Source: a virus
Lineage: Duplodnaviria > Caudoviricetes
Length of the DNA stretch: 57,402 nucleotides
Reading direction: 5' to 3' (one strand)
IMG/VR virus record: IMGVR_UViG_3300033150_001005
Coordinates: 1-57,402 of that record
Below the pieces are notes generated by a model. That model had not been told where the DNA came from. It worked only from the letters and a program-made list of their open reading frames with translations, and ran no database searches. Positions 16,622 through 47,162 of this stretch are shown one piece after another. Position 1 is the stretch's first letter. Each line of letters starts with the position of its first letter. The position numbers and the translations under genes are program-made.

Positions 16622-16626
16622 GTGCG

Positions 16627-16902: not shown

Positions 16903-16910
16903 TGATTTCC

Positions 16911-18776: not shown

Positions 18777-19246
18777 CAGTACTCGCGCCAGCGGACGTTG
18801 ACCAGCAGCTTTGAAACGGTCGCCGATTCGGTCCTGATCGTCAGAGCTTCGCCAGCGGCCAGTGACACATCCTCAAGGGAAACACTCAGCGTGGTATAAC
18901 CAACCACTTCGTACTTGTGCAAGACGGTCGTCCCGGAAATCGAGGTGCCGTATGTCGCAAGTGCCGTGTTCGCCGCATCTCCAGTGTGGGTCTTGTTGAC
19001 CGTGAGCGATGTGCCGGAACTGTAGGTCCCGTCACGCTCCACGGTGATCTCGACGTCATCAGACGAATAGACCGAAACACGGAAGCCCCCGGCCGTCACC
19101 GCAGTGCCGGAAGGAAGGCGTACCGTGACAACTTCAGCGGACGAGCTGAGTGATGCCTCCCGCTGTACAACGTAGGTCCCGCGTTGCGCCCACGCCGCCG
19201 GTGCAGCGAGCGCGACAGCAAGCAGTGCGATAAGGAATCTTTTCAT
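18776..19246 (-). CDS. Beta-rich protein with a signal peptide, inside the head operon
   Basis: MKRFLIALLAVALAAPAAWAQ. Confidence 0.7.
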   Translation of the reverse strand: MKRFLIALLAVALAAPAAWAQRGTYVVQREASLSSSAEVVTVRLPSGTAVTAGGFRVSVYSSDDVEITVERDGTYSSGTSLTVNKTHTGDAANTALATYGTSISGTTVLHKYEVVGYTTLSVSLEDVSLAAGEALTIRTESATVSKLLVNVRWREY

Positions 19247-19548
19247 TCGCTTTTCCCCCGGCAATGCAATCGTGCCTCGCGTGCGCTGGGACACATCACC
19301 CCGCAAACACGGCAAGGTGTCGGTTTCGGCGGACGGCCTCGCTTGTGCTCCTGCGGCAGAAAGGCTTTCACTGAATATTGAGTGATCGCCTTCGGCTCCA
19401 CGACGGGCGGGTAATACTTCTCCGCCAGCCCGCGGCGCATCAGGCTCTCCGCAACGTGAGGCGGTGCCTCGAAGATCTGCCCCGGTGCAACGTGGCCATA
19501 GAAATCCGCATTGGTAAGCGGGCGATTAGCCCGTAGTTGGATCGGCAT
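19243..19548 (-). CDS. Small post-capsid protein with a C-terminal zinc finger
   Basis: G..FE...AESL..RGLAE; KRGRP; C..C...HC. Confidence 0.65.
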   Translation of the reverse strand: MPIQLRANRPLTNADFYGHVAPGQIFEAPPHVAESLMRRGLAEKYYPPVVEPKAITQYSVKAFLPQEHKRGRPPKPTPCRVCGVMCPSAREARLHCRGKSE

Positions 19549-19573
19549 GGTTGATTCTCCGAAAGAAGGGGAA

Positions 19574-19677
19574 GGAGAGGCGCTCGCTGTGCTTGGTGCT
19601 CTCGACTACTTTGGCTCGCTCCAGCGGTTTGGTGCTCTCTTGATGTATGGCTCGCCTTACGGTTTGAGCGCCTCTCC
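19574..19677 (-). ncRNA. TIGR-like mini-array (2 x 36-nt units) inside a 12-bp inverted repeat
   Basis: + strand repeats at 19594, 19612, 19630 and 19648 (tggtgctctc/tggctcgctc), 18-nt period; flanks ggagaggcgctc 19574-19585 and gagcgcctctcc 19666-19677. Confidence 0.8.
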
Positions 19678-19691
19678 CTTTATTTTAGCGC

Positions 19692-20903
19692 CTAAAAGCT
19701 GGACGCGTAAATTACAGCATCGCTCCGATAGGTGGTGAGCGCCAGCCGCTCTTCGGCTCGGATCGCCACGAGGTTCTTAGTGAAATAATCCGAGTGCTCG
19801 GTGCTGATTACCACCTGAGCCTGCTGACGGTCCCAGAGCGCAACGTGGGTAGCAAAAGCGCCCACAAGCGCAGTGCCAGCGGTCATTGCGGTAGTCGTCG
19901 CTACTGGCAGTCCCCACAGGGTAGGCTCAGCAACACCCTGCGGCCCGCCAAGCAGATACCGGCCAGTGCCCGCGGCGCGCTCCTCCGTCTTCAAGGTCTG
20001 AATCAATCGCCAATCGGTAGGGTGCATCACGACACCGGTAGCCGTCAGGTTCGCAGCCTCGATCTGTTCGATCATCCGGGCAACCTTATCGATCTTAGTA
20101 TCGTTGGTTTGCCCATATGTGGAGCTATCGTAGGCCGTCGCCTCATTGGTCAAGCCGCTGAGGTTTTGCCCCGTGGCATCGCCGGACAGGATCTGTTTGT
20201 CTTCCTCGTCCATCAGGCCGTCGATGAGCCGCTGGTTAATATAGGCTTGCAAACCCTGGAAGTCATCCAGGATTTGCCGGGATGCCGGAATCCAGTGTGC
20301 GATGGTGCGAACGTTCTCGTAATCGATCGTAAAAGTGAGCGCGGATTCCTCCTTGGCCGAAGCCTCGACCTGCGGCGAAGCGTTGCTCGTGAAGACGTTC
20401 TCCTTCACGAATTCCACCGCATTATTGCTCGTGGTGAATCGCGGAATCAGATCCCGCATACGGTTGCGCCGCACGCCCGGCTTGACGATTCCCGGCACGC
20501 GTGCAGGTACCAGAATGCCCGGCGTCGAGCTACCGACCGCCGAACTCGTGATCGTGGTCTTGAAATCCCCCGGAAAGAACGTCTTGACCGGCACCTCCAG
20601 CGAAATACCGCGGATGTGACCATCACTCCGAACGTGCCCAGCGAACTCCTTGAAGGCATCGTTCTCGATGATCACCTCACCAATGGACCTCGTTTCAGCG
20701 ACAGTGTTCGGCGCGATGTTGCGCTGTTGTGCCGCCTCAAGTTCATCCAGGCGGCGCAAAGCCCTTTCCGCCTTTTCCAATGCCGGCTTGGCCGGTGCAC
20801 CCAGCGCCTTCAGCTCCTCGTAGTGCTGCTTCCACATCTCGCGCTGGGCTTCAATTGCTTGCATGACGTCATTCTTGACGTCTTCCAACGTATGTTCAGG
20901 CAT
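19692..20903 (-). CDS. Major capsid protein, HK97 fold
   Basis: VRTIAHWIPASRQILDD, FTKNLVAIRAEERLAL. Confidence 0.97.
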   Translation of the reverse strand: MPEHTLEDVKNDVMQAIEAQREMWKQHYEELKALGAPAKPALEKAERALRRLDELEAAQQRNIAPNTVAETRSIGEVIIENDAFKEFAGHVRSDGHIRGISLEVPVKTFFPGDFKTTITSSAVGSSTPGILVPARVPGIVKPGVRRNRMRDLIPRFTTSNNAVEFVKENVFTSNASPQVEASAKEESALTFTIDYENVRTIAHWIPASRQILDDFQGLQAYINQRLIDGLMDEEDKQILSGDATGQNLSGLTNEATAYDSSTYGQTNDTKIDKVARMIEQIEAANLTATGVVMHPTDWRLIQTLKTEERAAGTGRYLLGGPQGVAEPTLWGLPVATTTAMTAGTALVGAFATHVALWDRQQAQVVISTEHSDYFTKNLVAIRAEERLALTTYRSDAVIYASSF

Positions 20904-20913
20904 AATGCCCTCC

Positions 20914-22179: not shown

Positions 22180-23506
22180 TTCCACCCCCTCCGAATGCTG
22201 TTTTTGCGGCTTCCTGGGCCGCGCCGGCGACAGCCTGCATGTTGAGCTGGACATAATGCTCATCGCCGCCATCTACCGGGTTAAGGTTCAGCCATCGGCG
22301 AACCTCGTTGATGCTATAGACTCCCTTTTCAAGTAGCTTGGCGAACGCCTCCGCTTGGCCGCGAAAGTCGCCACGGAGGAAGGCTTCCAAATCGTGCTCC
22401 GCGTAAAGCCGGTCCTCCAATTGTTCATCGCGGCTTAGAAGACAGCGGAAAACCGTCTCCTTCCATCGCCGCCGCCACGGGCTGAGCGTCTGTGTCAGGT
22501 AGTCAATGTTCTCCGCCTCGATGGAGTTGTAGTTGACGCGCTCCAAGTCCGCCAATTTGTGCGGCTTCATGCGGAACAACCGGCAGACCTCCAGGATCTG
22601 AAACTTTCGTTGCTCCACTAGTTGCGCCTTGTCGTTGTCCGGCGTCAAGGGAGTGATATCGGCGCCGGAATGGAGAATGGCCGGCTCGTGCGATCGATCC
22701 ACACCCTGAAACCACTCCTTCCACTTCTCCTTGAATGCCTTAGCAGACTCGGGGCTGAGAGCATTGGGGAACTTGACAACAACGCCGGGCGTCGCATTGT
22801 GCGCGAAGAACTTGCTTGCGTATTTGTTCGCGGCCAACGTCAGCCCAATCACCTGCCGCGCCCGCTGCATGATATCGTCACCCTGAGTGCCGGTTACTGT
22901 AAACCCCTTCAGGTGGAATACATCGTCGGCGCGGTACTCCTTCTCTTTGCCGTCCTCGTTGTGGAAGTAGATGATCCGCCCTTTGCGGTCTTGCTCCTGC
23001 CTGACCGTGTACGGCATCCAGGGCCACAACCAAACCAGCCCTTTCTTCTCCCGTGACCGCTCCTTCCAGGCATAGCCGTTGCCTGTCAGCGCCGCGTGCG
23101 CCGTCAGCGTCTCAACAAACTCGCCGGCGGAAATGTCCGGATTCGGCAGATTCTTCAACAAGGGAAATAGCGGATGGTCAATCGCCTTCTCAGTCGCGCT
23201 CCGATCCGCTGATCGCCGATAGAGCACAAACGGCAGGCTTCCCATATCCTCGGCAATGATCTTCACGCAGGCATACACCGCCGAGGCTTCAAGCGCCGTC
23301 TCCGCATTAACGCTGATGCCCGCATCTGAGGAGCCAGTGCCGATGCCGGAAAAGTAATAGCCGTTGCGCGCGTACCAATCCGAGAGAACCGTTCCTGCAG
23401 TAACAGTGTTGAATGCTGCCAGCGTCCCCTTCTTGCTGAGTTCGAGCAATGCCGGCTTATGGCGGTGCCACCAGATCTCGAACTTCAGCGAATTCAACAA
23501 CCGCAT
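22157..23506 (-). CDS. Portal protein, HK97 family
   Basis: SAVYACVKIIAED, LTGNGY, INEVRRWLNLNPVDGGD. Confidence 0.97.
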   Translation of the reverse strand: MRLLNSLKFEIWWHRHKPALLELSKKGTLAAFNTVTAGTVLSDWYARNGYYFSGIGTGSSDAGISVNAETALEASAVYACVKIIAEDMGSLPFVLYRRSADRSATEKAIDHPLFPLLKNLPNPDISAGEFVETLTAHAALTGNGYAWKERSREKKGLVWLWPWMPYTVRQEQDRKGRIIYFHNEDGKEKEYRADDVFHLKGFTVTGTQGDDIMQRARQVIGLTLAANKYASKFFAHNATPGVVVKFPNALSPESAKAFKEKWKEWFQGVDRSHEPAILHSGADITPLTPDNDKAQLVEQRKFQILEVCRLFRMKPHKLADLERVNYNSIEAENIDYLTQTLSPWRRRWKETVFRCLLSRDEQLEDRLYAEHDLEAFLRGDFRGQAEAFAKLLEKGVYSINEVRRWLNLNPVDGGDEHYVQLNMQAVAGAAQEAAKTAFGGGGNARNQIT

Positions 23507-25188
23507 CAGACGTACACCGTCGCCGGATCAGCATAGCCCCACTCCGGCTCCTTGGCGCTCAGTGCGCGCGACAACGCCATCATCGCCGCCACCGGCCCAT
23601 CGATCTTGTTTTCCCGCCGCTCCTTCCGCGGATAGACGTTGCCCTTCACGTCTTCCTTTGCCACCACATTCCCCAGCATCCAACTGAGCACCGGGTCCCC
23701 ATCGTGCCGAATCGATCCATCAAGGATCATGGCGCCCAGGGCCTTCATCGGCTCAGAGATATGCAGGGTGTTCATCGGAATTTCGACCATCGGCAGCCCC
23801 TCCTGTGACATACGTGTGGCAAGTTCTGTCGCCTGATATGGGTCGTAGCAGATCTCTTTCGGATTCACCCGGCGCGCCCAATCGGCCAGATCGCGTTCGA
23901 TGAAGGCGAAATCGATGATCGGACCGGGCGTCAGCGTCATTCGCCCTTGTTGCGCCCAGCCGGCGTAGAGATCGTAGTTTGGCTTTCCCTTCTCCACGGC
24001 ATCTTCCGGCAAGTAGTAGTCGCCGAAAACCGCCCAATGGTCTTCGGCGCGGTAGATGCGCATGAAGGCGGCCACGTCCCACTTGCTTGCCAAGTCCAGC
24101 CCAAACCAACAGGGGTAGCCCTCATAATCGGACTCGGCAATGTTCCGCTTGCAACGGCCCCAAGCCAGCATATTGAAGTAGCTTTGCCCGCCGGAAAGCC
24201 AGATGTTGAGCCGCTTTGTCTGAAAGTTCGCTTGCGCCAGCGGATTGATTTGAGCCTGCTTGCAAAGCGTCTCAATATCATCCCGAAGAACCGATACCCC
24301 GTAGTTGGGATTGGCCTTTCGCCACGATTTCGGCGATAACCAGTCATCCTCCGGGTCTAGCGTGTAAATGATGCCGAAATAGCGGTCAGCCTCAACACGC
24401 CCCTCTAGCATCTGCGTTACAAACTCTCGCTGCTCGTAACAGATACCCTCCTTGTTCGTGCCAGCCGTGGTGATGATCCACTTCAGCGGCTGTTGCCGTG
24501 ATCCGGTCGAGGTATCAATCGCGTCAAATACTTCCCGCCCCTTGTGCGCGTGTAGTTCGTCAATGATTGCACAATGAATGTTTAGCCCATCGAGCGAGTC
24601 CGCATCCGAGGCCAACGGGCGAAAAACCCCGGCACTCTGCGGGACGTAGAGGTGGTGGTTGAACACCTCGACGCCTTGGCTTGCCCGTAGCCCCGGCGTG
24701 CGCAATGCCATCTGCCGCGCGATCTCGAAAACGATCCGCGCCTGATCCCGCGTAACCGCCGCGGAGTAAACTTCGGGTCCGGGCTCACGGTCGGCGGTGA
24801 GCATGTAGAGTCCGATAGCGGCACAAAGGCTTGATTTGCCGTTCTTCCGCGGCACCTCAACATACGCGGTCCGGAAGCGTCGCAAGTCATCGGTCTTGCC
24901 GACCCAGCCGAAAACCGTGGCGAGCAGGAAGCATTCCCAATCCTCAAGCTGGAGCGTCCGGCTACTCCAGCGCCCCTTGATGTGGGGCAATAGCTCGACA
25001 AATCGGCAGACCCGGTTGCCGAGATCGCGTTCGAATTTGAACGGGAACTGCGGGTCTTTCTCGCGCTCGCGGTCCTTGAGCTGGCGCTCGCAGGCGAGCT
25101 TGACCCAACGGCACGCCGGGATCTTGCCATTGAGTACCGCCCGAGCATAGCGTTCAGCCCGGTCGCAGTAATCATTCCGCTTGCCCAC
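23506..25188 (-). CDS. terL: Terminase large subunit
   Basis: EVPRKNGKS Walker A, IIDELH Walker B, ITTAG, KIDG. Confidence 0.97.
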   Translation of the reverse strand: MGKRNDYCDRAERYARAVLNGKIPACRWVKLACERQLKDREREKDPQFPFKFERDLGNRVCRFVELLPHIKGRWSSRTLQLEDWECFLLATVFGWVGKTDDLRRFRTAYVEVPRKNGKSSLCAAIGLYMLTADREPGPEVYSAAVTRDQARIVFEIARQMALRTPGLRASQGVEVFNHHLYVPQSAGVFRPLASDADSLDGLNIHCAIIDELHAHKGREVFDAIDTSTGSRQQPLKWIITTAGTNKEGICYEQREFVTQMLEGRVEADRYFGIIYTLDPEDDWLSPKSWRKANPNYGVSVLRDDIETLCKQAQINPLAQANFQTKRLNIWLSGGQSYFNMLAWGRCKRNIAESDYEGYPCWFGLDLASKWDVAAFMRIYRAEDHWAVFGDYYLPEDAVEKGKPNYDLYAGWAQQGRMTLTPGPIIDFAFIERDLADWARRVNPKEICYDPYQATELATRMSQEGLPMVEIPMNTLHISEPMKALGAMILDGSIRHDGDPVLSWMLGNVVAKEDVKGNVYPRKERRENKIDGPVAAMMALSRALSAKEPEWGYADPATVYV

Positions 25189-25189
25189 A

Positions 25190-25654
25190 TCAGAACTTTG
25201 CCCAGGGATCGTCCTCCGGGCCAGCATCCGGAGTCTTCAAAGTCGCCCGTGAGGCAGGCGTGAACCCGAAGTCTCGATAGCCGCGCCACAGATGCCCCAG
25301 AATCTCCTTCATCTCCCGGACCGCCGGGTTGATATGGACCACGCCACTCCGCTTATTGGCGATGAGGAATCCCGCCTTCCGCACCAGGTCCGCCATCTCC
25401 TGAAAACGGGCCTCCAAGTAAGCGATCTTCTCCAGTGGTCGCCCGTCCGCCTCCGTCAGCACTCGCATGTGCTCGGTGAGCGTCAGGAGGTCGCCGTAGT
25501 GCTTCTTCGCCAGTTCATCCTCGGCGAGCAGCCCGGTCTCGTCCGGTCGTCGCTCAGCCGGTTTCGGCTCCCGCTTGTTGATTGGCCGGTGCTGCGGATT
25601 GCCTGCACGAATCCTGATCGGCGTCGGTGTCGGTGCTGGTCCTCGAAGTCCCAT
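25190..25654 (-). CDS. terS: Terminase small subunit (P27-like)
   Basis: RGPAPTPT..GNP..R; NPA; FGFTPASR. Confidence 0.93.
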   Translation of the reverse strand: MGLRGPAPTPTPIRIRAGNPQHRPINKREPKPAERRPDETGLLAEDELAKKHYGDLLTLTEHMRVLTEADGRPLEKIAYLEARFQEMADLVRKAGFLIANKRSGVVHINPAVREMKEILGHLWRGYRDFGFTPASRATLKTPDAGPEDDPWAKF

Positions 25655-27003
25655 CAGCTTGCCTTCTTCAATGCCCGCAGATCACACTTGCGCTTGGTCA
25701 TTTGCACGATCTTCCACGGCTTTGCCTTCGGGGCACCACAGTAACGATCCGGTCCGCCAAATTGTCGCAGCCCTTCAATGACTGCGCGCTTGTCGGTCAC
25801 AGTCACTCGCCCGTCGTGAACCCTGTAGGCCTTCCGGCGCCTCCACTCGCCGATGATGTCCACAGCCTCAAGCCCCGCGCGAAGTGAAACCATTGACATT
25901 ACCCGCATTTCCGGAGAGTAAACGCGGGTCCGCTCAGCCATCTTGACCGGCCAACTCCGCTCATCACCGCGTCCAAAAAACTCCACCCACTTGCCTCGAT
26001 AATCTCGTTCCCAGTGGACGACGGCATCCTCCATCACGGTATGAGGAGTGGGCATAAACACCGACGGTGACGGTTTGAGCAGGAAATCGCTAGCCCCCGG
26101 CAGTTCCGAGATTTTCATGAGCGTCTCGCGGAACTCTGCCCAGTCGTCCTCAGTCTCGCCCGGCAGGTCCAGGATGAGATACATGAATAATCCCTTCCGC
26201 TTCAGAGCAATCGCCTTACGAGCGGCCTCCACCACTTGCTCATTCGTGTACGGTTTGCGCACCGACTGGCGGAGCCTTTCAGACAGACCTTCAACGCCAA
26301 CCCGCGGAACGCTATCGCTGCGCTTTTCGATTCGATCAAGCCTTACATCCGAGTCAACCCGGATCTTGCCCATTCGGTGGCATATTGCCGTTAGCTCATC
26401 GTCCGCCTTGTGCATCGTCGGTTCCGGAGCAAATAGCGAAACCCGCTTGCCCTTGGTTGACCAGAGCAGCTTCCGCGCCTCGTCGAGCGGCAGTTCACGA
26501 TACGGCTTCAACTGCGCCACAGCACAGAACGTGCAAGGCATCCGGCAGCCCCTGGCTACCTCGATACGAGCAATGCCATTGGTCTCATGGAGAAACGGCG
26601 GCAGTTGCTCGGCATTTCCCCAGCGGACAGATCGCTGGTCCTCAGACGTCAACACGTACGGACTCTCGCGGCCCTCGACGGCATCTTCAATCGCAACCTC
26701 CCCATCGCCCACCACGACCGCGTCAGCGAAAGGCAAGAATACAACTGGGTTGAACGCGTTGAAGCCGCCAACAACAATCCGCGGGCGCGGCTGACGATCC
26801 TTGCGGATACCGGCCTTCTGCAAAAAATCAGCTAGCGCATACAGGTGTTCCCACCAGAAGCAGGAGAAAACCAGCGTGTCAACGTATCGGGCCGTCCTCG
26901 GGGTAACCCGGAAAACCTCATGCTTGCCTCTGAGCACGTGCAGGCAAAGCGCCAACCCATATGCCAGATCATCGCGCCCGAAAGTCAGATACCCGATTCT
27001 CAC
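25654..27003 (-). CDS. Radical SAM protein with a B12-binding-like N-terminal domain
   Basis: EVARGCRMPCTFC (CxxxCxxC); VVGG..A, VVGDGE, LPGET. Confidence 0.9.
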   Translation of the reverse strand: MRIGYLTFGRDDLAYGLALCLHVLRGKHEVFRVTPRTARYVDTLVFSCFWWEHLYALADFLQKAGIRKDRQPRPRIVVGGFNAFNPVVFLPFADAVVVGDGEVAIEDAVEGRESPYVLTSEDQRSVRWGNAEQLPPFLHETNGIARIEVARGCRMPCTFCAVAQLKPYRELPLDEARKLLWSTKGKRVSLFAPEPTMHKADDELTAICHRMGKIRVDSDVRLDRIEKRSDSVPRVGVEGLSERLRQSVRKPYTNEQVVEAARKAIALKRKGLFMYLILDLPGETEDDWAEFRETLMKISELPGASDFLLKPSPSVFMPTPHTVMEDAVVHWERDYRGKWVEFFGRGDERSWPVKMAERTRVYSPEMRVMSMVSLRAGLEAVDIIGEWRRRKAYRVHDGRVTVTDKRAVIEGLRQFGGPDRYCGAPKAKPWKIVQMTKRKCDLRALKKAS

Positions 27004-27590
27004 TCCTGCACCTTGTATTTGCACTCATAGGTCTTGACCATCTGCTCAAGCACTCGAGTGATCTCCTGCCGCTTTGCAAGCCATATGCCAGGATGAAAGG
27101 TCATGCCCACCTTTACGCCAGGCTCGACCTCCGGGACATCGACAGGGAGATCCGCGTCCGCGTCTCCGATGCCCTGTTCACCGCGAATCAGATCCTCCAC
27201 CGCCGATGAGTCAACCTGTCCGATATCCGCAACTAGACCGGAGAGAATCTCTTCGTCCGGAACGGCCATGGCGCCCAGCGGATCGAATGTCGCAATAATC
27301 AGCTTTTCCTCGTCTTCGTCCAGATCAACATAGGTAACCGGAACCTTCTCCCCACGCGAAATCGCCATGGCGACGCGCGCGTGACCGTCGATGACGTAGC
27401 CGGTGCGTTTATTGACGATCACCCGTTGCACCCAACCAACCTGATCCAAGACGCCCGCCAGCGCATCTTGCTGGGCCTTCGGGTGAATGCGCCAGTTATG
27501 CGGGTTCGCCAACAATTGATCGGCGTCAACCTCGTCCTGACCGACTATCCGGTTTTGCCACTGCCGGGGTTGTGCTTTCTTACGGGCCAT
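27000..27590 (-). CDS. ParB-like nuclease-domain protein
   Basis: NPHNWRIHP..Q, VIDGHAR. Confidence 0.85.
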   Translation of the reverse strand: MARKKAQPRQWQNRIVGQDEVDADQLLANPHNWRIHPKAQQDALAGVLDQVGWVQRVIVNKRTGYVIDGHARVAMAISRGEKVPVTYVDLDEDEEKLIIATFDPLGAMAVPDEEILSGLVADIGQVDSSAVEDLIRGEQGIGDADADLPVDVPEVEPGVKVGMTFHPGIWLAKRQEITRVLEQMVKTYECKYKVQE

Positions 27591-27599
27591 CAAGCGAGC

Positions 27600-27690
27600 A
27601 TCCCCTTAAAAACCTGCGCGCGCATAAAATTGACTCGTCGCACGGTCTCGCGCCGCACTGCGCAGATTTTGCGCCGTGCCCCTCCCTTTA
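27600..27690 (-). other. Probable cos/packaging site region
   Basis: Non-coding gap just after the HNH gene with a GGGG..AAATC..GACCG..TTTT..CGCGCG pattern typical of HK97-like cos regions (by analogy). Confidence 0.45.
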
Positions 27691-27701
27691 CTTTCAACAA
27701 C

Positions 27702-28076
27702 TTAGCGCCGCTTGCTGCGATACCAACCCCGCTCCGGCTCAATCTCGTCATGGCACTGGCGGCACAGCGGCATCAGGTTCGCCGGATCGTAGGCTAGCCC
27801 CGGTGCCTCCCGGACGGGGCGGACGTGATGAACTTCTGTCGCCAATCGCGTTCGCCCGGCCTCCTTGCAGCGCTGGCACAACGGATGTTTGGCGAGTACG
27901 ATTCGCCGCACTTTCCGCCATCGGGCATCGTAGCCTCGTTGTGCTGCGCTTCCGCGCACTTCATCGGCTGCTTTCGCATCAGCTCGCTTATGTCGCGGGC
28001 AGTAGCCGCCCGTTCCGGCCCGGACCAGTTCAGTGCAACCGGGCTTGCGGCATGGACGGAGCGGAGCTTGTGCCAT
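27702..28076 (-). CDS. Terminase-associated HNH endonuclease (HK97 gp74-like)
   Basis: RGSAAQRGYDARW, HPLC..C, ATEVHH, NLMPLC..CH. Confidence 0.92.
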   Translation of the reverse strand: MAQAPLRPCRKPGCTELVRAGTGGYCPRHKRADAKAADEVRGSAAQRGYDARWRKVRRIVLAKHPLCQRCKEAGRTRLATEVHHVRPVREAPGLAYDPANLMPLCRQCHDEIEPERGWYRSKRR

Positions 28077-28077
28077 G

Positions 28078-28389
28078 TCAGCCCAGATTGCGGGGGATAT
28101 TGAGGACCGGGAAGTCCACACCGGGCCAAGTTCTATGGACTCCGCCTTGCCGGTCAGAGGCTCCACCCAGCCGCTCCACCGAGTAATAGAGCACGTTGCC
28201 GCCGCTATCCGCGATCAGTTGCCAGCGATTGGATTGCTTGTCAACGAACTCCAATCGGTAATAGGTTGTAGTGCCATAGCGCAGCGCGGCAAGAAAATCA
28301 ACATGCGATGCAATCACCGCATGGTCGGCGTGCTTGTCCAGAATCCTGGTCCCCTTCGGGGAGCCGTCCGAATCGACGTGTGGAAACAT
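28078..28389 (-). CDS. Hypothetical protein
   Basis: ORF with AAGGA SD filling the gap. Confidence 0.55.
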   Translation of the reverse strand: MFPHVDSDGSPKGTRILDKHADHAVIASHVDFLAALRYGTTTYYRLEFVDKQSNRWQLIADSGGNVLYYSVERLGGASDRQGGVHRTWPGVDFPVLNIPRNLG

Positions 28390-28399
28390 ATATTCCTTG

Positions 28400-28595
28400 T
28401 GCGACAGTAGCGGCGCCACCCGCTGGCTTAAGGCGGGTGCTTGCTACACCCTGACGGCTTGCGCCGCCCCACGCGCTGCCGCGACCACGTGGCCCACTAT
28501 AACCCGCCGGAGGGACCTTTCAGCCGCGAATCCGGAAGCGACCGGTCCATGTCCGGCGGGCAGTAAGGCGATCCCAAAGGACCGCCGGAGAAGAC
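28400..28595 (-). ncRNA. Candidate structured non-coding RNA
   Basis: ~200-nt intergenic stretch with nested stems: cccgccgga/tccggcggg, ggcggtcc/ggatcgcc, ggcggc-gcaa-gccgtc, cacccgc/gcgggtg. Confidence 0.45.
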
Positions 28596-28868
28596 CTACG
28601 CCCGGAATGTGCCGGGGTCAGTCTTCAATTCTTTGAACGCACGCCGCAATCTTCGCATCTCCGCATCCACGTCGATACCGTGATGCTGCGCCCAGCGCTT
28701 GCCCAATGTGTGTACCGCTTCCCGATACGGCCACTGGTGATGCTCCCGGCACAGCGGAATTGCTTGACTGTCGGGAGCCTTGCGCCCAAAGGCTCGCGGC
28801 CCGTAGTGGTGCGCTTCAACCGGGCGCTTGCCGCAGATCAGACAGGGCTGCTGGCGAATCCATTCCAT
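28596..28868 (-). CDS. DUF968-like zinc/HNH-type protein
   Basis: WIRQQPCLICG..EAHH, KAPD...IPLCREHH; start uncertain because the frame extends through the tRNA. Confidence 0.75.
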   Translation of the reverse strand: MEWIRQQPCLICGKRPVEAHHYGPRAFGRKAPDSQAIPLCREHHQWPYREAVHTLGKRWAQHHGIDVDAEMRRLRRAFKELKTDPGTFRA

Positions 28869-28882
28869 GTACTTCCGGTCTC

Positions 28883-28956
28883 TGGCTGGAGCGCGGGGGC
28901 TCGAACCCCGATCCCCGGAATCAAAGCCCGGTATCCTCCCATTGGACGACGCTCCA
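28883..28956 (-). tRNA. tRNA-Gln(TTG)
   Basis: 74-nt cloverleaf: acceptor tggagcg/cgctcca, anticodon arm ccggg-ctTTGat-tccgg, GGTTCGAG T-loop, CCA end. Confidence 0.9.
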
Positions 28957-29049
28957 TGGCTGATCATCGCCACGGCGGCGGCTCGCCATGCTTGGAGCCC
29001 ATCTGATAGCGCCAGACGGCAATGGCTTCCTCCTCGCTGTCGAAGCCCG

Positions 29050-29388
29050 CTATTTCCCAGAGGGGAGCGGTGGCGGGGGGCAAATCCGCCTGGATTCCTT
29101 CAATGTCCAAACCTTCAGCCCGTTGTCGAGTCTCTGCTGCCATGAATATCTCGTGCCGGCCAGTTGCCCCAGCGTGATCGGTGGTGGATCAAATGGCCGG
29201 CGATAGCGGATCGCCCGCACGGGCTTTCCCTTCCGGGTCCGCACCACCCGCACCATGCCGGCGGCTTCCATCCGCTTGATCTTCGCCAGACTCCACCAGC
29301 CCAGCAACTCGCCGTCATAGCGGTACAACCGAATTAGATTCGCCGACAAATCGCCTATGTGCTTTATCCGCCGCCACATAGCGGCCAT
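29050..29388 (-). CDS. Hypothetical protein (possibly frameshifted near the C-terminus)
   Basis: ORF; an alternative frame continues to about 28964. Confidence 0.55.
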   Translation of the reverse strand: MAAMWRRIKHIGDLSANLIRLYRYDGELLGWWSLAKIKRMEAAGMVRVVRTRKGKPVRAIRYRRPFDPPPITLGQLAGTRYSWQQRLDNGLKVWTLKESRRICPPPPLPSGK

Positions 29389-29425
29389 GCGGGAGATGGA
29401 TTAACGACCGTCCCGGCGGTCGATG

Positions 29426-29692
29426 CTAGCTGGCGGTCACAAGCCGCGCATACTCGGCCCTTGCTTGCGCTCTGATCTCGCGCTTGCCTTGGCGTGAAAC
29501 CACATCTATGGTTCGGAAGTACTTCGATCTGCGCATCGGCACCCACTCATAGAGGCGATCAGCTTGACTTGCCACCAGGGGGTCAACCATCCTACTCTCC
29601 TCCTCTTCGCGCCCGCACTCCCAACATTGGTTGATCAGACCGGGCTTCCCGGGGTCTGGGGTGAACTCTTCGCCACACACCGCGCAGATCAT
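29426..29692 (-). CDS. Small zinc-finger protein
   Basis: CAVCG...CWECG. Confidence 0.6.
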   Translation of the reverse strand: MICAVCGEEFTPDPGKPGLINQCWECGREEEESRMVDPLVASQADRLYEWVPMRRSKYFRTIDVVSRQGKREIRAQARAEYARLVTAS

Positions 29693-29747
29693 GATGTATT
29701 CTTCCCCTCATCCGGGTAGTAGAACAGCGATGGCGAATTTTACGCCT

Positions 29748-29969
29748 TCAGGACAGGATTTTTTTGATTTTGTGCCGCGCTTGCTTTCGTAGATCCGAGA
29801 TCCATTGTTGGCCGACGCCAACAATCCGGGCCGCCTCCGCCTGTGTAAAACCCAGCACGTCGCAATACAGAAAGGCATCCCGCTCCTTCGGGGGGAGCTG
29901 TTTCATTGCCGCCCGGAGCGATAGTCGGGCGATGATCGCATCCTCAGAATTTCTCACGGTGGTTCTCAT
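29748..29969 (-). CDS. Sigma-70 region 4 domain protein
   Basis: AMKQLPPKERDAF...GFTQAEAARIVGVGQQWIS. Confidence 0.85.
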   Translation of the reverse strand: MRTTVRNSEDAIIARLSLRAAMKQLPPKERDAFLYCDVLGFTQAEAARIVGVGQQWISDLRKQARHKIKKILS

Positions 29970-30237
29970 CAAACATTTCTCTCCAGGGTTTACGCTTGCG
30001 CCAATGGCGTACCTCGCCGCGAATTGAGCGTTTCATCCGCTGCTTGGCATTGCAAAGGATATGCGTCAGTTTGGTCCGCCCCCACGCCAAATCCAGCACG
30101 AGCGAGTAATTCCCCACGGCAACCAGCTCGTCTCGCTCTACCGTGGGCCGCTGCCCTGCCCGGATCATCCGATTCGCCAGACGCCGAATGTACGGCATGT
30201 ATTCCCGCACCAGGCGGTCTCTCTCTTCGATTGTCAT
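29944..30237 (-). CDS. Sigma-70 region 2-like protein
   Basis: ERDRLVREYMPYIRRLA...ERDELVAVG resembles FliA/WhiG region 2. Confidence 0.7.
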   Translation of the reverse strand: MTIEERDRLVREYMPYIRRLANRMIRAGQRPTVERDELVAVGNYSLVLDLAWGRTKLTHILCNAKQRMKRSIRGEVRHWRKRKPWREMFDENHREKF

Positions 30238-30336
30238 GGCGGATCGTTTGGACGACTGGGGCATGGCGAGACAGTTAGACCTTCAATCTCCCCAGTCACC
30301 GGCCCGCGTGGGGGGCGCCAGACCGGCTACACTTTC

Positions 30337-30365
30337 ATTCTGCCACATCATAAAGCAATTTGCAA
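30337..30365 (-). promoter_or_regulatory. Sigma70-like promoter for the leftward operon
   Basis: TTGCAA-17-CAGAAT on the - strand. Confidence 0.5.
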
Positions 30366-30436
30366 CAGAAATGTTTTTGCGCCCCAATGTACACTGGAGC
30401 ACAAAGGAGTCGCTGCTGCAAAGCGGCAAGCGGGCA

Positions 30437-30465
30437 TTGCCTAACAGACCTGTAAGATGTACAAT
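30437..30465 (+). promoter_or_regulatory. Promoter, leaderless mRNA
   Basis: TTGCCT-17-TACAAT, 6 nt before ATG 30472; contains CAGACCTG. Confidence 0.65.
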
Positions 30466-30471
30466 GGGGGC

Positions 30472-30699
30472 ATGAGCGGCAGTGCGCCCTCACAAAAAGA
30501 TCCTACTGCCATCGCCCGGGGGCGGCTCGGGGGATTGGCCGCCGCCCGCAACATGACCGCCGCACAGCGCTCGGAGCGGGCGCGCAAGGCTGGACACGGG
30601 CGGAAGCTGAAATGCACCTGCGGGCACTGCCCCACCTGCTACCAGCGCGAGTATCACCGCCGCTGGCGCGCCGCCCGCAGGCGAACAAACGGCGAATAA
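30472..30699 (+). CDS. Small basic putative DNA-binding protein (GRLGG motif plus CxCxxCxxC)
   Basis: KDPTAIARGRLGGLAAARNMTAAQRSERARKA. Confidence 0.7.
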   Translation: MSGSAPSQKDPTAIARGRLGGLAAARNMTAAQRSERARKAGHGRKLKCTCGHCPTCYQREYHRRWRAARRRTNGE

Positions 30700-30739: not shown

Positions 30740-30768
30740 TTGACAACTTAGAGCAGACCTGCGAAAAT
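30740..30768 (+). promoter_or_regulatory. Promoter, leaderless mRNA
   Basis: TTGACA-17-GAAAAT, 6 nt before ATG 30775; contains CAGACCTG. Confidence 0.7.
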
Positions 30769-30774
30769 ATAAGC

Positions 30775-31200
30775 ATGATGAGGCGGACAGAATCTAGGGC
30801 AGCCCGGAACAGGAACGACGCCTGGACGGGCATGAACTGGATTCGCCGCGAGAAGCGGCTCGCCATCTATCTCCGCGATGGGCTGGCGTGCTGCTACTGC
30901 GGCGCCTCGGTCGAGGACGGCGCCAAGCTGACCCTCGACCACCTCACGCCGGATAGCCGGGGCGGCGGGAACGAGGCGAGCAACCTTGTGACCTGCTGCC
31001 ACCGGTGCAATTCGGCTCGCGGCAATCGCCCGTGGCGGAAATTCGCTGGGGCGGTCGCCGAGTACCTCAACCACGGGATCGCGGCGGATGACATCATCCG
31101 CCACATCCAAAATACCCGCCGCCGGGCACTGGATGTCCAGGCGGCGAAGGAACTGATCGCGCGCCGCGGCGGATTCACCGCGGCGCTGAAAGGAAAATGA
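30775..31200 (+). CDS. HNH endonuclease
   Basis: RDG..C.YCG, LTLDH..P.SRGG, NLVTCCHRCN. Confidence 0.9.
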   Translation: MMRRTESRAARNRNDAWTGMNWIRREKRLAIYLRDGLACCYCGASVEDGAKLTLDHLTPDSRGGGNEASNLVTCCHRCNSARGNRPWRKFAGAVAEYLNHGIAADDIIRHIQNTRRRALDVQAAKELIARRGGFTAALKGK

Positions 31201-31457
31201 AAATGAAACACCGCTGCGGTCATCAAGCGGTGCTGCCGCCCTATATGGGGCGGGGCGCAGCTCGGCAGAGGCGGATCGCCGCCTATCTGGAGCGGGTATG
31301 CCCGCGATGCGCCGTCGAAGCCGCCCGGCGCCAATGCATGGCGCTGACAAACCTTGATGGTTCGCCAGCGCCGCTTGCATACCGCGAGCGGAAGCTGGCG
31401 GATCGACTTGCGGCGCTGCGGCGGATCTACGGAGCCGCGGCGCTGAAAGGAGAATGA
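31197..31457 (+). CDS. Small zinc-binding hypothetical protein
   Basis: H.CGH...CPRC. Confidence 0.7.
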   Translation: MKMKHRCGHQAVLPPYMGRGAARQRRIAAYLERVCPRCAVEAARRQCMALTNLDGSPAPLAYRERKLADRLAALRRIYGAAALKGE

Positions 31458-32641: not shown

Positions 32642-32959
32642 GTGAATGGAAGAGAAATCAGGGAAATCCTGATGCAGCCCGCTGTCAGCCGTGCGATGAT
32701 GCTCGGCACCGAGAATCCGGCTTTGACCAAGCTCGTCAAGGCAAGAAAAATCCGCCGCGGCATCCTGCGCGCGAAGCGGAATCTCCAGCAGGATGTGGCG
32801 CGGCATTACAGTCCCCGGATGGACGCTGGCGAATGGTACGACGCTGGACTCAGCCTTGGCCCGCATCCGGCCCAGGAGCTGGCCATGCAGCGGTTGATTC
32901 GGGAAGCGTTCGAGGACCCGACGCTGCCGCCGGAGCTGCGGAAGAATGCGGCGCAGTAA
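32642..32959 (+). CDS. Hypothetical protein
   Basis: SD plus GTG start. Confidence 0.65.
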   Translation: MNGREIREILMQPAVSRAMMLGTENPALTKLVKARKIRRGILRAKRNLQQDVARHYSPRMDAGEWYDAGLSLGPHPAQELAMQRLIREAFEDPTLPPELRKNAAQ

Positions 32960-32983
32960 GCCAGAGTGGAAAGGAGAACAGGA

Positions 32984-33445
32984 ATGAACTTGAAACTTGT
33001 CCGGGCTGTCTACAGAACAGCCCTTGAAGCCAAATGGGGGGGCGAAGCAAACGCGGCGGCCCTCCACTACGGCATTCCGGAGATGCAAGTCCCTCCGCCC
33101 TACCCGGTCGCCGTATATGACGGCGAGAGGAAATACTTGGGATACTATCTCCGCGACTACCCTCGCGATACCGACCGGCGAACCCTGACGCTGGCGGAGG
33201 CTGCCGGCCCGGAGCTGCCGGTCTACCGCGACATTCGCGGGGTGTTCCGCCATGCCCTGATTGTCCGCTTGCCAAATGGCGGCTGGCTCCTAGAAGAGGT
33301 GGACGGGCCCGGCACCCGGTATGTACGGGACTTGCCCGAGATCGTGAGGTCTCAGCAGGTGTACGAGGAAATCCTCGCCACCATGCCGCCCGGCTTGACA
33401 CCCGGATTACCTGGCGAGATCCGGGCCCGCAGGCTGTGGGCGTGA
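32984..33445 (+). CDS. Hypothetical protein
   Basis: AAGGAG SD, ATG 32984. Confidence 0.65.
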   Translation: MNLKLVRAVYRTALEAKWGGEANAAALHYGIPEMQVPPPYPVAVYDGERKYLGYYLRDYPRDTDRRTLTLAEAAGPELPVYRDIRGVFRHALIVRLPNGGWLLEEVDGPGTRYVRDLPEIVRSQQVYEEILATMPPGLTPGLPGEIRARRLWA

Positions 33446-33468
33446 GGCGGCAGTGAAAGATCGCCGCG

Positions 33469-34794
33469 CTAGTCATCCCTATCATCCTCTAGCCTCAGAT
33501 ATCGCGGCTGGAATAGCAGTTTCGCCGCGCCTATCGGCCCGTTGCGTTGCTTCTCCACGCTGATCCGCGTTGGCACAGGATTCCCCGCCTCCATTGCCTC
33601 CTCGCGTGCTTTCCGCCGCTGCCAGATCACCAGAACAATATCGGCATCCTGCTCAATTGTCCCGCTCTCCCGGAGCATTGACAGCGATGGCGGCTTCTCG
33701 TCTTCATCTTGGTAGCGCCGGATTTGCGACAGTGCAATGACGGGAATTTGATGCTCGGCCGCCAACAGCTTCAGGTCCCGCGTCATCTGCGAGACCTCCT
33801 GCACCCGGTTTTCGGTCCGGTCGGCACCGCGGAGCAATTGCAGGTAGTCGATCACCATGTAGTCCGCCCGCCGCCCCGCGGCCTTGTGTCGCTGGAGCGC
33901 CGCGTGCAGCGAAAGAACCGTCCGGCTGGGCTGGTCCGAAACGTAGACCGGGAGCTCGGCAAGCTCTCGCGCAGCTTCCGCAACTTCTCGCCGCTCCAGG
34001 TTGCTTAGCCGGCCCTTGCGCCAGTGCTGCATACTGACTTGCGCCGCCGCTGCGATCATCCGCCGCCAGATCTCGGCCTTGCCCATCTCCAGCGACGCAA
34101 GTAGCCCGTGTCGCCCACATTTCCCGGCGTAGTGGCAGATGGCACCAGCGACAGCGCTTTTGCCGTGCGATGGTCGCCCAGCGATGATCACTAGTTCGCC
34201 ACGCCGAAACCCACCACCAAGAATCGCATTCAGATGCTGCCAGGGAAGCGGGAGCACCGGCTTCATCCGCGCCGGATTGAGGAAGTCCTCAAGTGGCGAC
34301 TCACGCTCCAGGTATTCCGTGAGCGATAAGAAATCCCCATCCGTCCGCTTGCCGCCAATGCCCCGGAGCTGCTGCTCGGCCCGTTCAAGCAGTTCCGTTG
34401 CCGTTCCGGCCCCTTCCGCTGCTTCGTTGGCTATCGCACGTGCCGCGTGGATGAGCCGCCGGCGCATCGCCGCCTCTTGGACGGTCCGGATGTATGATTC
34501 CAGGCCATACAACTGCGGCAACCCGTCATCCAGGCTCACCAGGTAGCTCAGTCCGTCGATTCTGCGGAGGTCGCCCGTCTCCTCCAGCCGATGCGCCAGC
34601 GTCACCCGGTCCACCGATTGCCCCTGCGCGTGCAGTTCCCGCATCGCCGTGAAAATAAGCTGGTGCTTGCGGAGCGAGAAATCGAGCGGTTGAAGTGAGG
34701 AAAGCATAGCAAGGAGGGCCTTGGCGTCGGTCATCGCGGCGCCGAGGATCAGCCGCTCAATATCGACCGCCGCCGGGAGCGTAGCCGCCGCCAT
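33469..34794 (-). CDS. dnaB: Replicative DNA helicase
   Basis: IIAGRPSHGKS, SLEM, IDYLQL, ALSQ, LRESGTIEQDAD, KQRNGP. Confidence 0.96.
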   Translation of the reverse strand: MAAATLPAAVDIERLILGAAMTDAKALLAMLSSLQPLDFSLRKHQLIFTAMRELHAQGQSVDRVTLAHRLEETGDLRRIDGLSYLVSLDDGLPQLYGLESYIRTVQEAAMRRRLIHAARAIANEAAEGAGTATELLERAEQQLRGIGGKRTDGDFLSLTEYLERESPLEDFLNPARMKPVLPLPWQHLNAILGGGFRRGELVIIAGRPSHGKSAVAGAICHYAGKCGRHGLLASLEMGKAEIWRRMIAAAAQVSMQHWRKGRLSNLERREVAEAARELAELPVYVSDQPSRTVLSLHAALQRHKAAGRRADYMVIDYLQLLRGADRTENRVQEVSQMTRDLKLLAAEHQIPVIALSQIRRYQDEDEKPPSLSMLRESGTIEQDADIVLVIWQRRKAREEAMEAGNPVPTRISVEKQRNGPIGAAKLLFQPRYLRLEDDRDD

Positions 34795-35004
34795 TTAGTC
34801 ACCCTTCAGCCAGCGTCGGAACCGCCCTCTTGACTTGTTGTCCGGATCATGCCAACTTACGCCGTAGATCCGCCGGCTGAAATCGCCCCAAAGTTTCTCT
34901 ATCTCTCGACGGTTGAGACCGCAGCATTCCGGGACGTACCAGTCAAGCCACTGCACGTCGAGCTCGTGTATCGGGTTAGCTACGTCATTCCTTGCTTTCG
35001 TCAT
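34795..35004 (-). CDS. Hypothetical protein
   Basis: ORF between rep and dnaB. Confidence 0.5.
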   Translation of the reverse strand: MTKARNDVANPIHELDVQWLDWYVPECCGLNRREIEKLWGDFSRRIYGVSWHDPDNKSRGRFRRWLKGD

Positions 35005-35968
35005 ACAGCCTCCCGAATGGATCTTCCGGCTCCGGAATTTTGTCCAGATCGCGCTTTTCCCGGAGCCACCGGTGCAACGCTGGCCAGTAGCGCGGCTCAA
35101 TGCCTTCGGCTAAGACGTGCTCCACCCATGCCTCGTGCCGTTTGTCAATCCGGGCTGCAGCTTCCGAATGCTGCGAATCGGGGAACTCACTCAATCTCTC
35201 TGCCCATGCTTGCTCAGCGAGAATTCGGCCGTCCTTCTTCGCGTGGCGTTCGTAGATCCGCTCAAATCTCTTCAAGCGATCTTCAGACACACACACCTCT
35301 GAGTCTTGCCGCGTTCCGCCAGACGGTGTTACCGTTACGATACGTTCGGTGTGTGTTGGCTCTGGCTTAGGCTCTGGCTCTGGTAGTAGAGTTTCTGTTG
35401 AATTTCTGTTGAATTTCTGTTGAATATCGGGGTTAACCACCAATGTTTTGTTAGACTTAGCCGATACACCGCGTATTGTGTGGCGCTGGTCTGTTGGGTT
35501 TCCGTTGAATCTTCGTTGAATCTTCGTTGAGTCTCTGTTGAGTTTCTGTTGAATTTCCGTTGAGTTTCTGTTGAGTTTCTGTACTGGTCTGCCGCGCGAT
35601 GGGTGGCGTGGATCGGAACCGTCCCACCATGTCAGCCCAGCCCGAGAGAGCGCGGTACGCCAAGTATTGTCCGCGTGCTCGGCAACGTCATGGATAACCA
35701 GCCGATGCGGCTCCGGCGCCGAGTCTACCCAACCCGTCTCAATGAGCAACTCGATCAGCTTGCCTTTCTCGCCAGTCCAGCCCAGCGCCGTCTCGATGAC
35801 GGCATCCGGCCACTTCCCGATGTCGCCCTGGATGGCGTACTTCGACGCCCAATGCCACAGTGACTCTAATATCCCTACAGCTAGCGTCTTGGGCATTCCT
35901 AGACCCGCCTCGCTGAGCCGATCAGCGAGCAGTTGGATCTTAGGGTGTTCAGGGGTTCCGCGTTTCAT
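34985..35968 (-). CDS. Replication initiator protein
   Basis: HPK..LA..L, G.L..LW.WA N-terminus; low-complexity iteron region; upstream of dnaB. Confidence 0.8.
   Translation of the reverse strand: MKRGTPEHPKIQLLADRLSEAGLGMPKTLAVGILESLWHWASKYAIQGDIGKWPDAVIETALGWTGEKGKLIELLIETGWVDSAPEPHRLVIHDVAEHADNTWRTALSRAGLTWWDGSDPRHPSRGRPVQKLNRNSTEIQQKLNRDSTKIQRRFNGNPTDQRHTIRGVSAKSNKTLVVNPDIQQKFNRNSTETLLPEPEPKPEPTHTERIVTVTPSGGTRQDSEVCVSEDRLKRFERIYERHAKKDGRILAEQAWAERLSEFPDSQHSEAAARIDKRHEAWVEHVLAEGIEPRYWPALHRWLREKRDLDKIPEPEDPFGRLYDESKE
35390..35582. repeat. Iterons / probable replication origin inside rep
   Basis: Two blocks of tandem 11-nt repeats (about tttctgttgaa) at 35390-35424 and 35498-35582. Confidence 0.8.
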
Positions 35969-35980
35969 GGTCCGTCTCAA

Positions 35981-46712: not shown

Positions 46713-46931
46713 CTATTCACGTCGTAATCCTTGATTTTGGTCCGCCCATCTTTCGCAGACCCCCCTCGCCAACTCATCAACCATGTCCCGCAGCTTATCC
46801 AGAGCCGCCATTGCCACGACAACACGGTCGGCTATCTTTCCGAGGTCATTATTAAGCGCCTTAAGTTGGTTCAGGATCGCTGCGGATTGGTGCAACTCCT
46901 TCACTGTTTGCTCGTCGTTAAATGCGGTCAT
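46713..46931 (-). CDS. Small coiled-coil protein
   Basis: ATG 46931 with a GGAGG SD supplied by the last array unit. Confidence 0.6.
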   Translation of the reverse strand: MTAFNDEQTVKELHQSAAILNQLKALNNDLGKIADRVVVAMAALDKLRDMVDELARGVCERWADQNQGLRRE

Positions 46932-47120
46932 TTGTTCGCTCCTCCCGGTTGGCGCTCTCAACCTATATGGCTCGCTCTTACCTCCTGGCACTCTCTGTTT
47001 CACTGGCTCGCTCGCGTGGCTTGGTGTTCTCTCGTCGTTTGGCTCGCTCCCCCTATTTGGTGCTCTCGGCAAGGTTGGCTCGCTCAGGTTTTTTGGTGCT
47101 CTCGCCGCCGCTGGCTTGAT
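46932..47120 (-). ncRNA. TIGR-like dual-repeat array (5 x 36-nt units)
   Basis: 11 repeats at exact 18-nt spacing (46932 to 47112); - strand alternates GAGCGAGCCA and GAGA(G/A)YRCCA with ten different 8-nt inserts. Confidence 0.85.
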
Positions 47121-47128
47121 GCTTTCGC

Positions 47129-47162
47129 AAAAAGCGGGGAGCAGCGCCGCCACCGCTCCCCG
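47129..47162 (-). terminator. GC hairpin plus U-tract just upstream of the array
   Basis: cggggagcggtg-gcgg-cgctgctccccg-cttttt on the - strand. Confidence 0.6.

Follow-up and report, generated by a model that had tools for sequence, protein, structure and literature searches.

The stretch of DNA analysed in the present study (57,402 nt; hereafter, the window) is a complete virus record with a 114-nt direct terminal repeat at its ends and an estimated completeness of 100%, corresponding to a 57-kb phage. Of the window ORFs, 40 were scanned with Pfam or PHROG (six of them with both), which identified an integrase, a Gp3-like protein, a RuvC-like resolvase, two exonucleases, helicases, and a head module, among others. 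A run of glycosyltransferase-like and methyltransferase-like ORFs (12734-16172) is located within the structural half of the genome, and ORFs 30748-31380 and 32850-33485 have no family matches and resemble non-coding frames. Two blocks at 35375-35590, inside or beside ORF 34985-35980 with its replication-initiation PHROG match, contain an 11-nt tandem repeat (GTTGAATTTCT-like) in eleven overlapping copies, and these repeats resemble origin iterons. Two arrays of short repeats, designated arrays 1 and 2, and the features beside them are as follows:

46932..47120, minus strand: predicted TIGR array 1, five 36-nt units with ten 8-nt spacers, from direct reading and a 10-interval CCA-N8-GAG chain
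46713..46931, minus strand: 72-aa ORF of unknown function adjoining array 1, with no PHROG match
47135..47162, minus strand: terminator-like hairpin just upstream of array 1, 12-bp stem and T run, from the consensus scan only
19581..19657, minus strand: predicted TIGR array 2, two 36-nt units, from direct reading, a 4-interval chain, and orthologous arrays in the related loci L056 and L043
19682..19711, minus strand: TTTACG-18-TAAAAT, a sigma-70-like promoter match immediately upstream of array 2 that overlaps the head gene end, from the consensus scan only
19692..20903, minus strand: major head protein gene (phrog_10, E 1.4e-63), alleles of which are matched by array 2 guides

In both arrays, an edge repeat (GAGCGAGCCA) alternates strictly with a loop repeat (GAGAGCACCA) in units of exactly 36 nt, each consisting of the edge repeat G-AG-CGAG-CCA, spacer A of 8 nt, the loop repeat G-AG-AGCA-CCA, and spacer B of 8 nt. 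Array 1 starts with a 5'-degenerate edge repeat (ATCAAGCCA), continues with five units that each read 8 nt, a GAGAGCACCA-like loop repeat, 8 nt, and GAGCGAGCCA, and ends with a 3'-degenerate edge repeat (GAGCGAACAA) abutting the ATG at 46931; three copies of its loop repeat are variants with one or two substitutions (GAGAACACCA, GAGAGTGCCA, and GAGAGCGCCA). Array 2, which follows the major head gene and precedes the next ORF, reads AGGCGAGCCA, 8 nt, GAGAGCACCA, 8 nt, GAGCGAGCCA, 8 nt, GAGAGCACCA, 8 nt, and GAGCG, and its guides are TACATCAA/AACCGCTG and AAGTAGTC/AGCACAGC. CCA stands directly 5' and GAG directly 3' of all the variable 8-mers in both arrays (14/14; ten in array 1 and four in array 2), confirming the original prediction that every insert is followed by GAG, and the interval to which that prediction referred, 46942-47111, is bounded exactly by the final base of the last spacer and the initial base of the first spacer in array 1. 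Chains of at least three CCA-N8-GAG intervals at an 18-nt period occur within the window only in arrays 1 and 2, and this pattern is not due to chance. Tandem Repeats Finder detected neither array in the window because half of each unit is variable. A loose 10-mer search of the window allowing two mismatches returned 183 matches versus 218 expected, no better than chance, and located array 2.

The end of array 1 is shared with the adjoining gene. The Shine-Dalgarno-like GGGAGGAG of the ORF starting at 46931 is made up of the last array 1 spacer (ACCGGGAG, 46942-46949) and the GAG of the terminal repeat (46932-46941), so that processing of the array and translation of the ORF could be linked. 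The small ORFs beside array 1, including the 72-aa ORF, had no homologues in any related locus compared. The consensus scan detected no terminator-like site 3' of either array, unlike in published TIGR arrays.

In the accessible text of Faure et al. (2025; PMC12045711), dual-repeat TIGR arrays are described as having two alternating repeats of 8-12 nt, spacers of approximately 9 nt, and 36-nt tigRNAs, with a box C 'CCA' before and a box D 'UG' after each spacer, an A-rich 4-nt loop, and an edge repeat that has an extra G-C pair and is present as a 5'-truncated copy at the start and a 3'-truncated copy at the end. As far as that text describes TaTasR and the canonical TIGR systems, the window shares with them the alternating edge and loop repeats, the CCA box C, a 4-nt A-rich linker, and the possibility of the edge G-C pair. 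Furthermore, truncated outer edge repeats are present (ATCAAGCCA to GAGCGAACAA in array 1 and AGGCGAGCCA to GAGCG in array 2), in agreement with the TIGR description. The canonical systems, however, are described there as having spacers of 9 nt, heteroduplexes of 9 bp, UG as box D, and a RuvC nuclease, whereas the window has 8 variable nt and then GAG. The literal UG of box D is absent from the window: GAG follows every spacer at both repeat types (14/14), and AAG occupies this position in Salicola phage CGphi29.

According to the same text, the SpTIGR array of CGphi29 has 16 variable nt per unit. The array in the CGphi29 genome (NC_020844, approximately 15380-15760) has the edge repeat AAGCGAGCCA, the loop repeat AAGACAACCA, and 8-nt spacers; its edge repeat differs from GAGCGAGCCA of the window in the first base only, A there and G here, and the two phages also agree in unit length (36 nt), spacer length (8 nt), and a loop repeat of 10 nt with CCA at its end. 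In the 13033-15760 region of CGphi29, the TasH gene (annotated as hypothetical, 14395-15324) and the array lie directly downstream of the major head gene, and window array 2 is likewise located just downstream of the major head gene. CGphi29 carries the HNH nuclease TasH beside its array and a terminator after it, whereas the window has neither a tas gene nor a terminator. By sequence, arrays 1 and 2 are assigned to the dual-repeat TIGR arrays, in the 8-nt-spacer subtype represented by CGphi29. The first of the two layouts allowed by the original prediction, 8-nt spacers with 10-nt repeats, matches both the CGphi29 layout and the position profile of the repeat family. According to the available part of the report 10.64898/2026.08.11.744272, SpTasH forms a heteroduplex with one bp fewer than TaTasR and PlTasA (9 bp), with an 8 nt Spacer A.

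The exact repeat pair with an 8-nt gap was found in at least 100 IMG/VR contig stretches and in 18 MAG-contig stretches from Acidobacteriota, Gemmatimonadota, Alphaproteobacteria, and others, and 94 of the 100 IMG/VR loci listed contained at least one chain of at least three intervals, amounting to 1911 intervals in all. In 2124 intervals from related phages, duplicates kept, position 9 after CCA was G in 2000, A in 113, T in 9, and C in 2; an A is seen ahead of either repeat type and is absent from 54 of 99 loci, and the homologous position in the CGphi29 repeats is mostly A. In a set of 1534 distinct intervals, anchored on CCA alone at an 18-nt period with duplicates removed, positions 1-8 carry at most 0.04 bit each and position 9 carries 1.64 bit (G 93.9%, A 5.5%), with A at 97% in position 10 and G at 97% in position 11, so that position 9 is as conserved as the repeat core. 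The counts at the ninth position, mostly G and some A, thus indicate a purine position of the repeat. These results show that the constant G opens each 10-nt repeat, beside the box-D-like AG, and is not a guide base. The second layout, 9-nt spacers with a fixed last G, is contradicted by a ninth base that varies in the manner of a repeat position.

The relatives of the window arrays encode a nuclease-less TasA, whereas CGphi29 encodes TasH. Such a protein was identified in the related locus L039:

L039, 3495-4298, minus strand: predicted TasA, 268 aa, between two arrays, read in all frames

By sequence comparison, this 268-aa protein matches the TaTasR structure 9MTY (E 4.3e-12) and SpTasH (E 1.6e-9) in the C-terminal part (Nop / IS110 C-terminal RNA-binding type). 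Its sole Pfam match is a sub-threshold one to Transposase_20, with no HNH or RuvC domain, and the protein is accordingly classed as a predicted nuclease-less TasA. Clustering of the ORFs of the loci yielded array read-through ORFs and an out-of-frame artefact only, and was set aside; the reading of L039 in all frames gave TasA. TasA homologues are present in 67 of the 100 IMG/VR loci listed and in 8 of the 18 MAG loci, and the TasA proteins beside the shared repeats are 30-90% identical to one another. Two TasA-bearing phages, G001 (82.5 kb) and G006 (56.8 kb), are 93% identical and carry 40 guide units each, in several places and on both strands; one in-frame TAG lies within the TasA match of G006.

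Within the window, no match to PF01798 (Nop) or PF02371 (Transposase_20) was detected, tblastn with TasA gave a best E-value of 1.9, a profile built from 53 TasA sequences reached an E-value of 1 at best on the six-frame translation, and no Tas-like protein was present among the 40 ORFs scanned with Pfam and PHROG. These searches show a complete genome with no recognisable tas gene, and no effector is therefore shown in the window. Because the phage is complete without tas, TasA would have to come in trans, and the occurrence of identical repeats beside TasA proteins that are only 30-90% identical would allow guide loading in trans.

Only two close relatives of the window were found, L056 and L043, with 74-96% DNA identity over window positions 16050-30619, and both carry an orthologous two-unit array 2. 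A head-protein search retrieved 29 IMG/VR loci and 33 metagenome-contig loci, among which only L102, the same contig as L056, was close, and L102 alone carries an array. A pattern specific to array 2 matched L043 and L056 alone in IMG/VR and had no match in metagenome contigs, and a search for relatives of the array 1 neighbourhood gave two distant loci only. The contig names indicate that L043 and L056 are from the same metagenome, and such siblings thus co-occur. The window head protein has 95% amino-acid identity to that of L056 and 76% to that of L043; the flanking proteins are 86-98% identical compared to the 76% of the head protein (L043), the head gene being the most diverged of the shared module. 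Approximately 2 kb of the window (25657-27609) is absent from the L043 alignment and corresponds to other sequence in L056, an apparent insertion between the terminase and the next shared block that contains a radical-SAM protein (25654-27024) and a ParB-like/methyltransferase-like ORF (27000-27593).

The six array 2 guides of the window, L056, and L043 were scanned against the three head genes with gaps of 0-2 nt between half-sites. Three sites in the head gene were matched:

20227..20243, minus strand: head-gene site 1, TATATTAA-C-CAGCGGCT, codons Y-I-N-Q-R-L
19783..19798, plus strand: head-gene site 2, window allele AAATAATC-CGAGTGCT, L056 allele AAGTAATC-GCTGTGCT
20116..20132, plus strand: head-gene site 3, TATGTGGA-G-CTATCGTA

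Matches at 14 or more of the 16 guide positions numbered four, all in the arrangement of spacer A followed by the reverse complement of spacer B (A.rc(B)), and all on non-self alleles:

Window guide 1 on the L056 allele: 15/16, gap 1 nt
L056 guide 1 on the window allele: 16/16, gap 1 nt
Window guide 2 on the L056 allele: 15/16, gap 0 nt
L043 guide 1 on the window allele: 14/16, gap 1 nt

On their own alleles, the same four guides match at 13, 12, 11, and 13 of 16 positions, respectively, and the own-allele mismatches fall mid-spacer. At site 1, the window allele matches L056 guide 1 at 16/16 and window guide 1 at 13/16, and the alleles differ synonymously (TAT-ATT-AAC versus TAC-ATC-AAT). At site 2, window guide 2 matches the window allele at 11/16 and the L056 allele at 15/16, the two alleles having different, synonymous Ser codons (TCG versus AGC), and the guide of each phage carries the Ser-codon variant unlike that of its own gene. 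At site 3, L043 guide 1 matches the window allele at 14/16 and its own allele at 13/16; the Ser codon switches at sites 2 and 3, among TCG, AGC, and TCC, are all synonymous. L043 guide 2 matches both the window TCG allele and its own allele at 12/16, and L056 guide 2 matches at most 11/16 on all three alleles. As a sequence pattern, array 2 guides are thus shown to fit the synonymous head alleles of siblings, with 3-5 mismatches to the own allele, in a sample of three related phages in which two of the four matches fall on one site and the window guides reach at most 15/16, on L056.

Several controls were compared with these four matches. In 300 rounds of letter-shuffling of the guides, no round produced more than one match and the average per round was 0.007. 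Among the alternative arrangements, A.B had one match and rc(B).A and B.A had none, and combinations of spacer A of one guide family with spacer B of the other gave one match in 18. Both stray control matches lie on true sites, one being site 1 re-aligned and the other anchored on the exact right half of site 2. A first partner-swap control (mean 1.09) was discarded because it was contaminated by orthologous guides. The arrangement of spacer A followed by the reverse complement of spacer B, on which the original prediction was built, is thus the only one with independent near-perfect natural matches.

For array 2 only, spacers A and B match opposite strands of adjacent half-sites, as in canonical TIGR systems, for which the accessible text likewise describes small tolerated gaps. 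The half-sites are separated by C or T at site 1, by nothing at site 2, and by G at site 3. For array 2, the matched sequences show a predicted target that reads spacer A (8 nt), 0-1 nt, and the reverse complement of spacer B (8 nt), a total of 16-17 bp with no fixed centre, and this case sets the half-site spacing of the 8-nt subtype at 0-1 nt. From this spacing, an 8-bp heteroduplex per spacer may be expected for the window family. Cleavage by TaTasR leaves 8-nt 3' overhangs in the accessible part of the published work, which, in our own working, fits a target reading of A and then the reverse complement of B.

Spacers and repeats of array 2 have diverged at different rates between the siblings. 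In the three sibling pairs, the spacers have 8, 12, and 12 differences in 32 positions, compared to 1, 0, and 1 in 45 positions for the repeats (Fisher p 0.003, 6e-6, and 6e-5). The combination of constrained repeats and rapidly changing spacers speaks against decaying remnants. In the comparison of the window with L056, the target sites have diverged at 12 of 50 positions versus 135 of 1162 in the rest of the head gene (p 0.014); in both comparisons with L043, in which the whole gene is approximately 28% diverged, no excess divergence of target sites was observed.

Wider searches with the guides of the family and of array 1 were close to background. Exact matches of 738 family guides against 0.87 Mb of loci and the window numbered 0-1, versus approximately 0.4 for swapped A/B partners, with no enrichment; the one exact match was that of L056 guide 1 to the window at site 1. 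With one mismatch in the A.rc(B) arrangement, the 738 guides gave 28, 24, and 24 matches versus swapped means of 18.4, 20.1, and 16.5, at most a weak excess, and several of these one-mismatch matches sit in unmasked array remnants. Matches of family guides to five whole phage genomes were at background except at gap 0 with two mismatches (171 versus 139.5, sd 12.8), and the identical guides of G001 and G006 had no matches on each other above background. Across the 738-739 family guides, there is thus no clear excess over swapped pairs, and at most a weak one. The five array 1 guides gave 12 matches of at least 14/16 versus 2-35 in shuffled controls, and in a second test 9 matches versus a control mean of 7.9; no target of array 1 was found. 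As a side observation, guide TCGAGGCC/CGAGAAGC of locus L006 matches a small serine-recombinase gene of L035, L069, and L096 at 15/16 with a 1-nt gap, and this may be another inter-element target; L006 contains no homologue of the serine-recombinase gene.

The original prediction also listed seven 18-mers as targets, which were correctly built as spacer A plus G and then C plus the reverse complement of spacer B. As exact sequences, these 18-mers had no match in 1.65 Mb of related sequence (200 records), and the corresponding 16-mers with gaps of 0-2 nt had none either, the shuffled control of 42 swapped A/B pairs also giving 0. A scan of IMG/VR with one 16-mer with a 0-2 nt gap matched at least 115 stretches, and the 80 of these matches listed, split by gaps of 0, 1, and 2 nt into 35, 20, and 25, included none related to the window or its head gene. 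As all of these 16-mer matches are unrelated, exact searches at that length are swamped by chance and uninformative.

Considering these results, we propose the following scenario, to which we assign a probability of roughly 0.7. Arrays 1 and 2 are TIGR arrays in which the constant G is a base of the repeat, array 2 would be directed against the head alleles of siblings, and TasA would be provided in trans and act as a block to transcription. The guides of the array would be loaded onto a nuclease-less TasA from the host, a resident prophage, or a co-infecting phage; the TasA-guide complex would then sit on the head gene of the rival and block its transcription, and the recoded head allele of the phage itself would escape. 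The guides would thereby act in competition between sibling phages. TasA and inactive TasR are RNA-guided repressors, demonstrated on reporters for TasA, in the available part of the report 10.64898/2026.09.09.750476, and the 268-aa Tas protein of the relatives is of the nuclease-less TasA type, like the repressor TasA of that report; transcription block is therefore the expected action. More tentatively, the portable TIGR guides of a temperate phage may borrow the TasA of another element and silence the head genes of siblings, in a mutual, RNA-guided, allele-specific arms race of near-identical phages in which each phage has recoded its own alleles; this is possible, with the odds somewhat against it.

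A competitor of this scenario with respect to the constant G holds that the spacers are 9 nt with an obligatorily pairing last G, that the targets are 18 bp centred on GC, and that an acquisition or core-dinucleotide rule lies behind the centre. Counting back from CCA with the 4-nt linker and the 2-nt box D of the canonical description, as given in the accessible text, does leave a 9-nt 'spacer' ending in G; furthermore, at the gap-0 site both G's could pair, the two 9-mers then overlapping on the central CG, and in two of the gap-1 matches one of the two G's could pair. However, none of the three natural sites has two central bases, let alone GC (half-site gaps of 1, 0, and 1 nt), a spacing that contradicts the 9-nt reading; the ninth base is A in 113 of the 2124 intervals and mostly A in the CGphi29 array; SpTasH pairs 8 nt in the available part of its report; the exact 18-mers are without a match in the 1.65 Mb; and in the IMG/VR scan a GC centre occurred in only 1 of the 25 gap-2 matches listed, all unrelated to the window. 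Taken together, the ninth-base counts, the 8-nt pairing of SpTasH, and the absence of GC centres at all three sites therefore support neither an acquisition nor a core-dinucleotide rule, and we regard the whole 9-nt interpretation as highly improbable. It is barely credible that the repeats act at the DNA level, for example as protein-binding iterons, and not as guide RNAs. They are indeed short, regularly spaced, and intergenic, and the 11-nt repeats at 35375-35590, elsewhere in the window, do resemble true iterons, but the strict alternation of two repeats in a 36-nt unit, the CCA box, the near-identity to the characterised TIGR array of CGphi29, the Tas genes in 67 of the 100 related loci listed, and the strand-split matches to the head gene all speak for guides.

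Two further explanations accept the arrays as TIGR arrays and differ on their role. One of them, that the arrays are effector-less remnants of a tasA-bearing ancestor or decoys soaking up the TasA of a competitor or the host, we consider unlikely. The complete genome without a tas gene, the shortness of the arrays (five and two units, versus far more in many TasA-bearing relatives), and the array 1 guides for which no target was found are all consistent with it; conserved repeats (0-1 of 45 changes) beside changing spacers (8-12 of 32), however, are the opposite of neutral decay, and a decoy needs no spacers that track the head alleles of siblings in the correct two-strand arrangement. Quite improbable, in our estimation, is self-regulation, in which array 2 would act on the phage's own head gene by imperfect pairing, for example in the timing of late expression, and the sibling matches would be by-products of recombination. 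The array lies directly downstream of the gene it matches, the own-allele matches of 13, 11, and 13 of 16 exceed the expectation for random sites, and TasA proteins do repress transcription according to the available part of 10.64898/2026.09.09.750476. Against this, all four matches of at least 14/16 are on a foreign allele, the own-allele mismatches fall mid-spacer, and the mismatch of Ser codons between guide and gene at site 2 in each phage would need several separate recombination events. We thus favour the scenario of sibling-directed guides working with a TasA supplied in trans.

Virus-borne mini-CRISPR and orphan CRISPR arrays are short and effector-less, carry spacers against close relatives, and draw their effector from elsewhere in the cell. 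The window differs from mini-CRISPR in having TIGR guides, no known adaptation machinery, and discrimination by a few synonymous positions in 16-17 bp. Compared to the systems in the available part of 10.64898/2026.09.09.750476, the present case adds candidate natural targets and an array-bearing phage without a Tas protein. Among the literature entries listed, we found none on capsid-directed tigRNAs or on natural targets, orphan arrays, or inter-phage use of TIGR-Tas, and neither 'orphan' nor 'capsid' occurs in the accessible text of PMC12045711; supplementary tables and TIGRSafari may list the TasA-bearing relatives. The constant G is thus an ordinary feature of a known array subtype, and what is new is a Tas-less phage with guides that fit the head alleles of its siblings.

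TIGR arrays can exist without a neighbouring tas gene, and searches that start from tas loci miss such arrays. If the more tentative proposal of portable guides is true, these head-gene sites would represent the first set of natural targets of a TIGR system, with spacers that would evolve by point changes tracking their targets. For the biological role and the natural targets of TIGR-Tas, this locus offers a concrete and testable case: three head-gene sites of 16-17 bp, together with the guides and alleles of three siblings, for which the prediction is that the allele of the sibling would be bound and the phage's own allele spared.
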